This document shows, piece after piece, positions 5,155-58,420 of a DNA stretch of 64,000 nucleotides (positions are counted from its first letter, which is position 1; each line of letters opens with the position of its first letter). Below the pieces are notes generated by a model. It was not told the origin of the DNA, made no database searches, and saw only the letters and a program-made list of their open reading frames with translations. The stretch covers positions 49,414,001 to 49,478,000 of the forward strand of contig CM068745.1 in the NCBI GenBank assembly GCA_035084275.1, read 5' to 3'. This DNA is from Hydrolagus colliei. Lineage: Eukaryota. The translations under genes were made by a program, and so were the position numbers.

Positions 5155-5520
5155 TAGTCTTGTAGTTCATTGGTTAGAGCACTTGCCTCGCAAGCAGGAG
5201 ACCTGGGGTTTATTCCCGGCAAGGTGAAATATTGGTCTAGTTTTCTTACTCCGCACACCTCTGTTTACCTAGCAGTAAGTAGTAACTCGGTTGTTTGTCA
5301 ATTAGCAGTTCGCTTTTCAGTGGATAATAATTCTTTAATAAATAATATTAATTTGGTCACTCAACCCATGACTGTTTGTGGGATACTGCTGTGTGATATT
5401 GGTTTCCACATTTCACCCACAAATATATAGTCAATTGACAGTTTATTTTATGAAGTGCTTTGAGACATCTCGAGGATGTGGTAAATGCTATATCAAATGG
5501 AGGGATTATTATTATTATTA
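5155..5520 (+). mobile_element. tRNA-derived SINE, long variant (tRNA head + CORE-like + Deu-type 3' + L2-type tail)
   Basis: A/B-box head gtagttcattggttagagc..ggtttattccc; cctctgtttacctagcagtaagtag segment; tgtttgtgggatactgctgtgtg; (TTA)n tail. Confidence 0.85.
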
Positions 5521-12135: not shown

Positions 12136-12265
12136 NNNNNNNNNNNNNNNNNNNNNNNNNNNNNNNNNNNNNNNNNNNNNNNNNNNNNNNNNNNNNNNNN
12201 NNNNNNNNNNNNNNNNNNNNNNNNNNNNNNNNNNNNNNNNNNNNNNNNNNNNNNNNNNNNNNNNN
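12136..12265. other. Assembly gap (130 N)
   Basis: N run. Confidence 1.
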
Positions 12266-17200: not shown

Positions 17201-17342
17201 TTCTAACATAAAATCTAAAAAATGATGAAAATCCACAGCAACTTCATCAGCTGCAAAAAGAAACACCAATTCATGTTTTAGATATGACCCTTCATCAATT
17301 TTATTTCAGATTTTGAACATTTTAATTTTTTCTTTTATTCTC
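17201..17342 (-). mobile_element. Third, more degenerate Penelope-like pLTR remnant
   Basis: gacccttcatcaa (minus ttgatgaagggtc) and inverted end ttatttcagatttt; flanked by TGCAGAT at 17194-17200 and 17343-17349. Confidence 0.45.
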
Positions 17343-33300: not shown

Positions 33301-35400
33301 TTTATTTTATTACGTCCATTCTTCTGAATATACTTTAGGCATTTGTGTATACATTTCAATGTTAATGAACTGTCACAAACAAATTGAAGTCCTAGGGCTG
33401 TATCCACTGCAGAATTTGTGCCACATTTTGTGTTGCAATTTGAGGTCATAAGGGCCATCTAAATCATTGCCATTACAATTGACTAAAGTACTGTCAAAAG
33501 CAATTTATGCCAACGCAAGTGGCCCTAAAGTTAAAAGTAATTTATTGTTCATCCATAATCGTCACTTTTTTCTGAGTTCAGAGGGCTATTTGGTTACTCA
33601 GACTACATTCTAGTAATCCTGATAAATAAAAATGTATTCAGTGCATATATAAATCTATATGCATTTATTCTCCCACCATCCCAGAGCACTCTGCCATTGT
33701 CAAACTATTATGAATTAGAATTATTTTCTGTAAAGCATTGTCCGTAATAAAAATGTTAACTAACAAAAGGTAAGGAAACTTAGTAAAAATGAAACAGACA
33801 ATGTAATGGATTCAAAATCAAAATTACATTTATATAGCACCTTTCACATCGGGAGGACTTCCCAAGGCGCTGAACAGGCAGGTAGGGATCAGAAGAGTGG
33901 GGGAATGGTCGAGGTAGGGAGACGGAGAGTAGAAAATTGACTGTATATTTGTGGGTGAAACGCAGCGACCAAATTGCGCACAACAGTGTCCCACAAACAG
34001 TTGCGGAAGTGGGGCCAGGGGAGAAAGGGGGAAAAGAGGGTAAAATAAAGATTACATGTGATAACAATAAATAACCATTTTGTGTAGCACTTTTCACATT
34101 GGGAGCACTTCTCAAATTGTGTCATTATAGAAGCCGAGTATTTGAACCCACAAACCACTGACCGAGGGACAAACATGCTGCTAGCTGAACCAAACTGACA
34201 CTGCTGAATTAACATTGATGCTGATATGCAAGTTGTACACTGTTTCTTTGCAAATAATCGAACAGTCATCCGACTGCTGCAACTGTCCTGAGATTCCAGA
34301 CAAATGAATACCATTTCCTGCATCATCAGATTATCCTTTCATAAGTCAGTCTCTACTCCTGTGGTGGGCATATGAGATACAACTCCTAGAAACGAGAACT
34401 AACAATGAAATACACATGAGCTATTCAGCTCCATATGTGATTCATGAGATTCCTGTTGTTATATTTTGTAGTGGTAGGTAAACAAGCATTAATTCATTAG
34501 TGCATTTTTTAAATCATTTTAAAACTAGCCAATTATTTCTCAATTCGGTGATAGTTCTTTTTCTTGTCAGTTTATATTTTGTTCATGTCGTCCCAGTTTG
34601 TCCAACTTAATTACTTTTTAAAAAAGGTTAATGTACTTCATTGCTGTTGTCAAGGACGTCTCTCTCCATTTAGCAATCTAGGTTTCCATGTTTGCATTAC
34701 TTTGACATTACTGAATCTTCTCAGAGTTACCCATTTATACTCTATGCTTCGAATGTCATGGTATTCTCTTACCCACTGGAAATTACATGGTATTGTTAAC
34801 ATCTAATTATAATTCTATTGCATGTACCTTACTCTATGTGACTTTACTTGAAGTAGAGCAAGATACTTGCAATAATATTATAATTAAATAAGTTGACAAC
34901 CATAACTCATTTTGTACAGGTGCAAGTGAAAAAAGTGCTAACCAATACACTAAAGGATTTCACTTCTTATATGTTTAATAACCTTCAACCGACAGCTTGA
35001 TCCTGGCGCTCTTCATGAATACCTTCCAACCATCAGCAAACATACTTGCATTGTATTCGCTGATCCTCCACAATGAGAAACATCTTCAACTAACTGCTCA
35101 TTCTTTCTGAGCATTCATGGAAGCAATTTCAAAATTAACTCTTTGCAGAACTAATACTAAATATGTACAGAGAGGGTTTAGATTGCTAAAATAACAGTGC
35201 TTGATTGTGATTCTTTCGGAACATATGTCTGCTGTGTGTATGTTGTCTTCTCTTACGCTATCCCTTTGTATCTTCCCGCACCATGAAATTCTCTATTTCT
35301 CATTTCTTTTTGTTATCCTTTGTGGATCCTAATCCTGTTTCTGATTGTCATTTCTATTTGGGTAGTTCACTTATGTCAAAGAGTGGGATCAAAGGTGTTA

Positions 35401-35491
35401 CCTAATGCAGATATATTATGAACCACTGTGGTTATTCTTCAACATATTTTAGATTAACAACCACAGTGGTTCATAATATACCTGCATTAGG
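35401..35491. repeat. Near-perfect 33-bp inverted repeat (hairpin, 25-nt loop)
   Basis: 35401-35433 cctaatgcagatatattatgaaccactgtggtt vs reverse complement of 35459-35491 (32/33). Confidence 0.95.
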
Positions 35492-36539
35492 GAATGCAGA
35501 AACCACTGAAACTATGGTTCAGTGGAAATCATTGGAGATAAAGCAATGATATAAAGAAATAAGTAGCATTTTTACAGTGCCTTATCAAAGTCAAGTAGCT
35601 GAGCATCCTTCTTAGTAATTACTGATAGTGTAATAACTATGATTAATACATTTATTTTTGGTCACCTAAGTGACACAGAAGCAGAGACCAATCACCACGC
35701 TTAAGTGTATCCAACTGAAACTAGAGTTCCACATATGCATGGGAATTTCTCACATCTCCATACTCACTCTTTCATGAATAACATCCATTGAGCAAGGTAT
35801 CAGAGGTTACCCAGCATTATACCACAATAGAAGAAATAAATAGTTAACCATCTGGAGGAGGGTAGGAGAAACAATTGTAGAAAAAATCACTGAAAGAAAG
35901 TATGTTAAAGAATAATAATTTTCCTTAGGAAGACTCAAGAATGCCCTGGAAAATACAATTATTCAATAAATTCCTGATTTGGGATAAAACAGATACTGTA
36001 TGTAAAATTGGGTAAAAATCATTTTTGAAAGCATGCAAAATTTATTATTTAAAAATGTGTAAGAAACTTCATCAACTGCGAGTCAGAGCTCTGAAAAATC
36101 CATATATAATCTTTCTGCTATTATTTAATATATCTCACATGTATACTCCAATTACCACCTGCAGCTCAGATGTTAAATGAATCTTGTCAACTCAGGAAAA
36201 GCAGGGAAAAAAACGCTGAATCGGCAATGTACTATATCTGGCAATTGACTTCATGCAATACGCTGGTAATGGGCAGTTTTGCAAAGCTTGTCATTGCCTT
36301 CATTTGTACAGTGAATATTTTATAAATAAAGGTAATAAACCAAGTTGAAACAAATATCTTTAATGTGTCCAGCACATTTACAATTCATTCGGGCTGTAGT
36401 TTAAGCTTGTCAGCTTTTAACTGTGGTTACAAATGTTGGAACATTATGTAATGTGACTCAATATATTACAGGAGCTACAAATTACAGGCATTTGTTCATC
36501 ACACATAAAACAACCGCACAATGCAATAATAATAATGCT

Positions 36540-37780: not shown

Positions 37781-38336
37781 ATAATAATAATAATCCTTGC
37801 ATTTGATATAGTGATCTGTTAATACTATACCAACTTCTCCGCTCCCTCTGCTTGGCATGCTTCATGTCCCCTGCTTTGCCCACTGTTGGTGGTTGGGCCT
37901 TCAGCTTTTCTGCCCGCAGCCTATTTTTAATACTACACCTATTGACCTTAATGTAATATACTCTTTGTATGATAATTATGTGCTGTGACTCACAGAATAG
38001 ACATACCATCATCTTATTAATTCTATGTTATCTTTGGAGAACCCAACACCACTCCAGCATGTTTTCATCAAAAATATACGAAACAAAATATATTTCTTCA
38101 TTCAAATTGTATCAAATTGTAAAGTATCAAATGATCTGACAGTTAATTAAATAATCAACATTTGAAATTTAGGAAGTAAAGATTTTGTGGTTGTCGGGTG
38201 GAGAAATGTTCAATACAAAAAGAACATCTAGTACCCAATTAAAGGCTCATGGGTTTAATCATTCACCTAAAGATATTTCAATAGGTTGTTTCACAAACTT
38301 TTTTTAATGTTCGCCCCCAACAGCCTTAATGTTATC

Positions 38337-38515
38337 AAAAACGAAAATACTGCAGACGCTGGAAATCTGAAACAAAAACACAGATTGCTGGGAACACTGA
38401 GCAGGTCAGGCACCATCTATGGAGAAAGGAAAAGTGAGTCAATGTTTTCGGGTCCACGACCCTTCTTCAGAACTAGCTGTTGGACCTGCTGTGTTCCCAG
38501 GGATCTCAGCTTTGA
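38337..38515 (-). mobile_element. Penelope-like pseudo-LTR remnant with partial inverted repeat
   Basis: aaatactgcagacgctggaaatctgaaac..gcaggtcaggcaccatc..; inverted arms 38388-38407 and 38483-38500; contains hammerhead core. Confidence 0.65.
38438..38473 (-). ncRNA. Minimal type I hammerhead ribozyme motif (probably decayed)
   Basis: Minus strand gtt-CTGAAGA-a-gggtc-gtg-gaccc-GAAA-acattgac: CUGAnGA box, 5-bp stem II and GAAA box. Confidence 0.6.
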
Positions 38516-39049
38516 TGTTGTGTTCCATAAAAATACAAATCATTTATACATACTTATCATTGTACCCCTGAGCTTTCTGGATCTGTTTGATGTGACCAAT
38601 GAGGCTAGCTCTTAAAAGAGTAGATGTCAGTCTATCGGGATTATTTGTCCAGATTAATTAGAGGATAATTGTCATTCCACTGGTGATTGTGAAAAGATAG
38701 ACGTTTCAACTAATTGATTAAAGCAGCCCAATCAGGCAGTTACACCACTGATTCAATGCAGTCATTATTTTTTAACCTATTGTTGAAATAGATCATTTAG
38801 GTGATCAGTTAATAGGTTCATCATCAGGATTTGAAGGCCTTATCAGTCACAAGGAGTTTCCTCTAATATCTTGTGAACTCCTCCAGTCAAAAACTAAATG
38901 GTTAGATCCTAGATGGCAAGCAGTGGGAACCTTGGCAGACAGCTCTCTCAAGGAGGCAATGCAGTTTTAGCTGGTAAAGTTGCAGCAATATCCCAATGCA
39001 CCCAATCTTTACGTATCAATACAGAATATATAATAATATATATTATTAT

Positions 39050-48124: not shown

Positions 48125-48297
48125 GCCTTACCCCCTCCATAGCCTCCTTCAACTTCAGCCTCACGACCCTTCTCTTTGACTGTGTCAACCCCCTTCCCCG
48201 ATCCCAACCCCATCTCGGGTCTGAACCATTCACTGTCCAGCACCTTGGGACATCCTCCGATATGAAAAGTGCATTACAAATGTAATTTTGTTGTGGT
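48125..48297 (+). mobile_element. L2 3'UTR/tail fragment
   Basis: ctcgggtctgaacc..ctgtccagcaccttgggacatcctccgatatgaaaagtgc..aaatgtaattttgttg. Confidence 0.75.
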
Positions 48298-49419
48298 TTT
48301 CTTTAAAATAAAGTTATTATGGCTCTTTTAGACATGAAGGCGATATAATACAAGGATTATCATTATTGTTGTTATGATCATAAACCAGAAGAGATTTAAA
48401 GACAGTAAAAACAAAATTAAACTTGTATAGCACCTTTCACATCAGGAGGACGTCCCAAGGCAGATCTTGTCCTAATATCTCTTACAAAGGACAGTGCCTC
48501 CATACTTTTGTGATTTTTACTCCATTCTTTCTTAAATCATATTGTAAAAACATGGCATAATGTTTATTAATTTACCTTGAATCTTTGAATGAAAAAAATT
48601 TAAGAATGAAAATAATAAGATGGAAAATGTTCCCAAACCTTTTAAATTAATGTGTTCCAAAGACCTTACTCATCAACTGCGCTTATGGTCAGCTTCTCCT
48701 TCCCCCTGACTTGGCCTCCGCTATTGATAAGCACTCTGAGATGATGCCTAGCATGGAGAGCACTGTATAAATGTAAATTGTTGATCTGTAATTTTACATT
48801 CATGAAAGTAAGAAGGAAAGGAGCAGGAATTTAACGTAATTGAACATTTAGAGAAAATCTCATCATTGAATAATGAATTGTTGAAAATAAATTGTTCTCT
48901 AGGGAATATGTTACACCGAAAAGCCAATTCCATAAAAGTAGTACAATATTATGCACTGTATGTTAGCTTTTAGTTTGTTGGGTCCTAATTTTTATATCTC
49001 AGTAGCCAGGAATTAATCTACATGTATCTCTTTATAATGCCAGTCTCTAATGTCTGTGTGACTCCCAACTTCAAAGTTCTCACCTCACCAAAAGTTTATT
49101 TCATACCCTTGTAATTACGTAGTCCGATGATTTTTATTTGCATCACTTCTGCACTCGACTGACTCTGGATTTCTGCATGTTCCCTATCCCTTCCATACAA
49201 CTATCGGTGGCCAACCTTCAGTTGCTGTGATGCAACCTCGGGAACTTCCTCCCATTACCCCTCTACCTTAACTCCTCTCTAAACTGTCTTGAAATACATT
49301 CTAAAAAGCCACCTTTTCAACCAGATCTTTTCACTTACCTCTTCTCCCTTGGCTCACCATTAGGCCTCATTTCCGTAAAGCATTCCAAGATATTATATGA
49401 AGTGTGTTCTACAAAAGAC

Positions 49420-58316: not shown

Positions 58317-58420
58317 GTTTTTCTGATGAAGGGTCATGGTCCCCAAACATTGACTCACTTGCTTTCTCCATGGATGCTACCTCACTCGCTGAGAGTTCCC
58401 AACGACTTCTGTTTTTTTGA
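58317..58420 (+). mobile_element. Second Penelope-like pLTR remnant with mutated hammerhead core
   Basis: CTGATGA-a-gggtc-atg-gtccc-cAAA-cattgactcactt..tttctccatggatg; reverse-complement match to 38375-38473. Confidence 0.6.

Follow-up and report, generated by a model that had tools for sequence, protein, structure and literature searches.

The stretch of DNA analysed here (the window, 64,000 nucleotides of the Hydrolagus colliei assembly GCA_035084275.1) contains an insert that is very probably the short, decayed and 5'-truncated end of a Neptune-type Penelope-like element (PLE), carrying a minimal hammerhead ribozyme that is likely inactive. By itself this copy is unremarkable: the genome has some 25,000 such dead PLE fragments, the ribozyme is of a described type, and the odd cleavage site once ascribed to it does not exist. 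The useful part is at the level of the family, where the breakpoints bear on the formation of pseudo-LTRs (pLTRs) and partial tandems and on the role of the hammerhead (PMC11167929; this and all other published work is cited for the sections covered). These breakpoints would predict RNA whose 5' end lies at the stem I edge, uncut templates and template jumps from that end.

The insert spans 170 bases, 38337-38506, between decayed target duplications (Table 1; positions given with a sign are relative to core base C3, which is window position 38470 on the minus strand). It fits the layout found across the family, with a tailed arm (38337-38474), an untailed inverted arm (38483-38506) and a flanking duplication. 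A first-pass annotation, made from the letters alone, had described an element of about 180 bp with a partial inverted repeat. The repeat is real, 38483-38506 pairing against 38407-38382, and the bounds of 38337-38515 had to be corrected to 38337-38506 by the target duplication, whose best 13-mer (11 of 13 identical) lies exactly at the score threshold. A genome search with the window element gave 1601 candidates, and the 40 that were scored were 88-93% identical over 38474-38337 only, that is, over query positions 42-179, the main arm. The family profile, built from 22 of 30 loci selected by their GIY-YIG sequence (the other eight had no anchor), extends the 5' end of the main arm weakly to -15, with a 3-nt gap and low posterior. 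No remnant of a reverse transcriptase (RT) or GIY-YIG open reading frame was found in the 64-kb window. Elsewhere in it there are eight tRNA-like matches (at 5156, 13345, 39258, 43932, 49701, 51405, 56469 and 61792), probably the heads of a tRNA-derived SINE, two long hairpin-like stretches with sub-threshold matches to miRNA families (48243-48460 and 35398-35492), probably fragments of inverted repeats, and a run of 130 N at 12136-12265.

Table 1 Features of the window related to the Penelope-like element
Feature	Position	Strand	Basis or remark
Left target-site duplication, decayed	38321-38336	.	12/16 identical to 38507-38522
Right target-site duplication, decayed	38507-38522	.	12/16 identical to 38321-38336
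Main arm, 5'-truncated pLTR, from 4 nt before C3 to about +130	38337-38474	-	Family profile E 2.8e-36
PLE tail of about 33 nt, bounded by the two favoured 3'-end clusters (+94 to +103; +126 to +134)	38337-38371	-	Two 3'-end clusters, 169 copies
Untailed partner arm in inverse orientation, 5'-truncated, covering about +62 to +87 of unit	38483-38506	+	blastn 22/26
Minimal type I hammerhead	38437-38474	-	Sequence; profile alignment
Stem I 5' arm	38474-38471	-	
Core CUGAAGA	38470-38464	-	
Stem II GGGUC/GACCC, 5 bp, after bulged A	38462-38450	-	
GAAA	38449-38446	-	One extra A follows
Triplet AUU	38443-38441	-	Predicted cut between 38441 and 38440
Stem I 3' arm	38440-38437	-	
Second family stub, -2 to +98, without tail	58321-58419	+	Family profile E 9e-20
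Possible remnant of an inverted pair, very old, from the family or a relative; hammerhead not readable	17201-17335	.	Marginal pairwise scores

Read on the minus strand, the ribozyme of the window copy consists of an AGUU stem I arm, CUGAAGA, a bulged A, GGGUC-GUG-GACCC, GAAA, A-C-A-U-U and GACU. The core, the 5-bp stem II and the GAAA noticed in the first pass are thus all present at 38470-38446, and their assignment to the minimal type I hammerheads of PLE pseudo-LTRs is borne out by the features of the motif and by its position in the pLTR. The search proposed at that stage gave a divided answer: a strict hammerhead descriptor had this single match in the window, with shuffled sequences averaging 0.05 matches (n=100), and the Rfam scan of the window at E<=10 reported no hammerhead family. 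We infer that the Rfam models pass over the minimal form. In the profile alignment the window copy shows a 1-nt insertion in stem III and a change of G16.2 to A. Its stem III, AACAU, lacks the palindrome for dimer pairing, and the predicted stem III self-duplex has +3.4 kcal/mol compared with -1.7 in the intact copy L005. Since the extra A and the CpG decay destroy the palindrome, this ribozyme is likely dead and would not be expected to cut, as had been proposed from the CpG decay (here G16.2 to A, to which the additional stem III A is now joined) and a supposed NUG site.

The supposed non-cleavable NUG site, or atypical triplet, came from a misread register. After GAAA the family consensus reads C-G-U-U-G, and among the 85 copies that reach -3 the triplet is GUU in 62, followed by G, and AUU in 13. 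Position 17 is U and the next G is 1.1, pairing with U2.1, because the ACGU palindrome fixes U16.1; the 4-bp stem I agrees with this register. In 9 of 37 subfamily-B copies position 2.1 is C, which makes a C-G pair with 1.1. GUU sites are slower than GUC. They are among the active NUH sites (PMC3138052). The change of G16.2 to A is as frequent as that of other CpG sites (13/85), so the CAUUG common to both window copies is decay, and the shared 'cattgactcac' does not point to an atypical consensus triplet as had been suggested. The palindromic stem III postulated for the family does exist, as ACGU, with core and palindrome together intact in 29 of the 85 copies.

The majority bases of these 85 copies give the CUGANGA and GAAA core, stems I and II and G10.1-C11.1. 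An apparent excess of conservation in the core (95% vs 86%) vanished on like-for-like comparison, where no excess over the flank was found among copies (A/T positions 97.1% vs 96.0%; CpG positions 77.6% vs 76.7%). Conservation above flanking levels, put forward earlier as a check, is therefore uninformative here, neutral decay being what is expected in dead copies. A search for two-sided changes at pair 10.2:11.2 returned 10 matches, nine of them from the family, of which five were paired and four of those five were plain transitions, with no covariation signal and no second hammerhead family of this shape. Between subfamilies two one-sided changes keep the stem pairing, and the subfamily differences spare the hammerhead core, a pattern that alone is not significant. 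Subfamily B has a U-G in place of the C-G at the top of stem II; it has lost fewer CpG than subfamily A and looks younger.

Given that dead copies are not expected to show conservation or covariation, the identity of the ribozyme rests on its match to the published motif and on its position. Mere chance resemblance would account for the missing Rfam match and for the lack of conservation excess or covariation among copies, but it is extremely improbable: the core, the bulge before stem II, G10.1-C11.1, the palindromic 15.2-16.2 and the short stem I are all there, as in the list of PMC4209133, the motif sits in the expected place of the pLTR and shuffling predicts 0.05 occurrences per window. 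Judged by sequence, the family motif passes as a minimal hammerhead and the window copy fails on stem III. The predicted active dimer fold (-15.7 kcal/mol) is less stable than two misfolded monomers (2 x -11.4), a preference that agrees with the low, protein-assisted activity described in PMC4209133 and PMC11167929.

Two further copies had been announced in the window. The one given at 58317 was confirmed as 58321-58419 on the plus strand, with a hammerhead broken by G12 to C, a mismatch in stem II and G16.2 to A. The more decayed third copy at 17201 fared worse, as the family profile finds nothing there at E<=5 and its pairwise scores of 35 and 33 lie inside the background tail (41, 38, 35, 34 and so on). 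Their sum of 68 is the highest among the 250-nt tiles clear of the two real copies, the next being 63, and 17201 is plausibly a very old copy.

Exact matches to the intact core number 478 genome-wide, and those to two patterns of the 3' part 1689 and 2926, with no match to any of the controls. Sampling eight large contigs at 40 fixed stretches of 10 kb gave 10 insertions, about 25 per Mb, which corresponds roughly, and with a wide error, to 25,000 dispersed insertions. Breakpoints were read in 169 well-preserved copies (93 of subfamily A and 76 of B) from 160 loci, picked solely for matching a pattern that lies downstream of the cut site; they were the first listed on contig C1, after dropping duplicates and matches with less than 300 nt upstream. 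Only 6 of these 169 have a same-strand neighbour within 600 nt. The family is thus dispersed, as first proposed, and is not a tandem retrozyme; the tandem copies that were to be looked for amount to those six.

The same end continues into the coding part of a PLE in longer copies. Ten of the first 30 loci continue upstream, some of them into a GIY-YIG region with a C-x4-C-x2-C linker, and longer copies reach an RT with DKG and YIDD motifs, an RT fragment of the family being 48-55% identical to full-length protein homologues. The Pfam scan of six such homologues, with identities to the fragment of 52-55%, gave GIY-YIG in 6/6 and RVT_1 in 5/6, some below the curated cut-offs, and the three homologues examined have the DKG and a C-x4/5-C-x2-C linker, both of which are present in the family copies too. 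In the broken family fragments themselves the Pfam matches are weak (RVT_1 E 0.022, GIY-YIG E 0.0035) and seven of nine fragments have none. RT and C-terminal GIY-YIG are collinear on one strand in genomic copies, with broken frames. Among 20 loci selected by RT and compared with one of these homologues, the hammerhead region lies downstream on the same strand in 14, only its 3' part is found in one and nothing in five, so that a pLTR follows the ORF in 15/20, counting the one with the 3' part only. A pLTR directly precedes the ORF start, forming a partial tandem, in 12 of 30 loci chosen by ORF start, and in L363 it is followed by the whole broken ORF, whose ATG is 168 nt after C3, past the tail. 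The RT loci, the ORF-start loci and L363 together exclude in practice that the long copies are chance juxtapositions. In L333-L342 a pyrimidine tract ending in TAG stands directly before the ORF ATG, possibly a splice acceptor of a 5' UTR intron.

The linked GIY-YIG and RT frames that had been proposed as a check were therefore found, in longer copies of the same end, and the DKG and CX2-5CxxC linker mark the family as apparently Neptune-like, a placement by motifs and not by a tree. None of the 150 copies scored out of 578 RT candidates has an intact ORF, the longest frame being 517 aa, for which reason the family looks extinct in this genome. The stubs are truncated insertion products of an autonomous PLE. 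An independent non-autonomous family, as in the first-pass annotation, is at odds with an end that runs into GIY-YIG and RT and also precedes the ORF start.

Most of the 169 copies are 100-140 nt long with similar boundaries, and their 3' ends fall into two groups, +94 to +103 and +126 to +134. In 94 of them an inverted partner is found within 250 nt upstream, and in these pairs the tail is on exactly one arm in 80, on neither in 14 and on both in none. Target duplications, mostly of 13-16 bp, exceed the threshold in 75 of 150 loci, while shuffled pairs of flanks give a mean of 4.65 and a maximum of 11. Nine of the 30 GIY-YIG-selected loci, on seven contigs (L031/L005, L033, L035, L037, L044, L047, L049, L053 and L059), do not end at the tail: a GTCG-like repeat follows, and then a segment of about 2.5 kb that these loci have in common and that looks like host DNA carried along by a single master copy in a 3' transduction. 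Older repeats are nested inside this segment, its far end is the same in the four loci where it was read (L061, L063, L065 and L071) and it is inverted at the 5' side in L005 and L010.

The similar boundaries of so many copies of 100-140 nt could also be expected if the family were a short, retrozyme-like element of its own, non-autonomous and cut at an atypical site, the more so as trans-mobilisation of solo pLTRs occurs in rotifers (PMC3846280) and some stubs might have been recopied. This is now largely refuted and very improbable. Its cleavage site is GUU, tandem arrays are absent (the six neighbours above), stubs and ORF-bearing copies have common subfamily markers, the boundaries of the stubs coincide with those inside ORF-bearing insertions, and ends do not accumulate at the cut site, where an element that cuts and circularises should break.

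The 5' ends have a strong preference of their own. Of the 102 copies that reach the core, 65 end in -8..0, with the mode at -3 and a background of about 9%, and 37 pass the edge; the hazard of ending is 0.106 per nt in this interval compared with 0.011 (binomial p 2e-41). The cut-site window holds 7 of 153 ends, with 11 expected, and there is no excess at the 3' base of stem II either. The same edge ends 16 of 30 copies of a separately chosen set. Public contigs of run X5, which may be related to the sample of the assembly and is not fully independent of the breakpoint set, have loose ends without shared upstream sequence at -4 (207) and -3 (246), and also at +94. Among the pLTRs that precede an ORF and reach C3, 4 of 6 start at -2 to -6, and of 17 ORF-to-pLTR junctions 8 fall at -8 to -4 and sit at unrelated positions of the ORF (from 430 pLTR hits, at loci enriched for ORF starts, which biases the rate). 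Chimeric insertions were seen in L360 and L364-L367 (also L264, L336 and L348), in which a pLTR beginning at the stem I edge is followed by the first 80-980 nt of the ORF and by a second pLTR that begins again at the edge; their junctions lie at unrelated ORF positions, some with short microhomology.

The pile-up at the edge together with the lack of excess at the cut site indicates that the templates were likely uncut and likely began at the edge. Bases -6..0 read CCAGTTC, which fits the initiator pattern YYANWYY. Internal promoters with initiators are known in other PLEs (PMC2377424, PMC3846280). We consider it somewhat more probable than the contrary that the edge is the 5' end of the RNA, set by the initiator-like CCAGTTC. 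An extra G derived from a cap is not evident at the 5' junctions (G in 18/65). In reads from another organism the two strands of the family are covered to about the same extent and ends do not pile up at the cut site or the edge, but the library, fragmented poly(A) single-cell, is of a kind that cannot show ends.

We tentatively read the stubs, with rather less than even confidence, as fossils of a strong-stop step in the transposition of PLEs. The RNA would start on the 5' arm of stem I, and the RT, primed 100-135 nt downstream, would run off this end; the product may then integrate as a stub, jump by homology to the downstream pLTR to give a full copy, or mis-jump into the ORF to give partial tandems, the hammerhead being uncut in the templates. 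For the insert itself, and with more confidence than for this cycle, we infer that the element protein nicked the target with a stagger of about 14 bp and that reverse transcription was primed inside the RNA at two positions some 33 nt from each other, one for each strand, yielding the tailed arm and the untailed inverted arm. The RT would have copied through the uncut hammerhead and stopped 4 nt before C3. In an active element the two hammerheads of the unit would form a dimer via ACGU, with slow cleavage after GUU that is probably assisted by protein; in the window copy, whose palindrome was lost by the 1-nt insertion and CpG decay, no cutting would be expected.

The same element could have left the same pile-up if the RT stalled or switched at a roadblock on the outer edge of stem I, either a bound protein or a fold that was not predicted. 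Such a block, which we regard as possible though doubtful, would yield stubs and ORF-to-pLTR jumps (the 8/17 junctions) just as the start-site reading does, and the 37 of 102 copies passing the point would suit it. But the RT would come to the 3' arm of stem I before the 5' arm and should have opened the stem by the time it reaches -4, the 40 nt upstream are predicted to be largely unpaired in L005, and the 3' base of stem II is without an excess of ends. A second alternative takes the edge for a 3' splice site and spliced RNAs for the source of the stubs. It draws on a context that resembles an acceptor (a pyrimidine tract and a CAG ending at -3) and on Penelope of D. virilis, where the intron ends at the 5' end of helix I (PMC4209133, PMC2377424). 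It is improbable, as no upstream exon is shared among the 21 edge-ending copies that carry no other element sequence upstream, agreement with the genomic sequence at -5 to -7 is still above background, and none of five inspected ORF-to-edge junctions is at a GT donor. An RNA that begins at the edge, copied to its end, remains the reading we prefer. No paper on this 5' pile-up was found in the literature searched, with most subscription journals and Repbase outside it.

Minimal hammerheads are known in the Xena, Poseidon and Neptune elements of fish (Cervera and de la Pena 2014, PMC4209133). Those and the present family are both of type I, with the full core, the bulged base before stem II, G10.1-C11.1, a palindromic minimal stem III and a 4-bp stem I, and both exist mostly as single, dispersed, truncated copies. 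The family differs by its stem II of 5 bp, and the window copy by its stem III, which has the insertion and the CpG change. The text and supplements of that paper that were searched contain no cartilaginous fish, and a search for hammerhead ribozymes with elephant shark, again with most subscription journals and Repbase outside, found no paper. With the Neptune clade (Craig et al., 10.1101/2021.04.23.441226) the family has in common the single frame of RT and C-terminal GIY-YIG, the DKG, the CX2-5CxxC linker, 5' truncation, the inverted partner, a tail of 30-40 bp on one end and partial tandems; here, in contrast, there is no intact ORF among the scored copies, and Nematis has the same linker. 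The insertion layout is also that of the PLEs in PMC3846280. The animal non-LTR retrozymes (10.64898/2026.07.22.740005), present in one chondrichthyan sampled, likewise have a type I hammerhead derived from a pLTR, but they are tandem repeats with a hammerhead in each unit, whereas the family consists of single copies or inverted pairs, and by this tandem definition the window element is not a retrozyme. A parallel for the breakpoints is the Poseidon of Anolis (Frangieh et al. 2024, PMC11167929), in which two internal start sites of the RT define the tail and match the two 3' ends of the family. A 5' pile-up at stem I is not described for it in the text covered, and its ORF starts inside the hammerhead, unlike here, where the ATG lies beyond the tail. 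In Poseidon cutting by the hammerhead is not needed and uncut RNA is the main template, in agreement with the uncut templates suggested by the breakpoints of this family.
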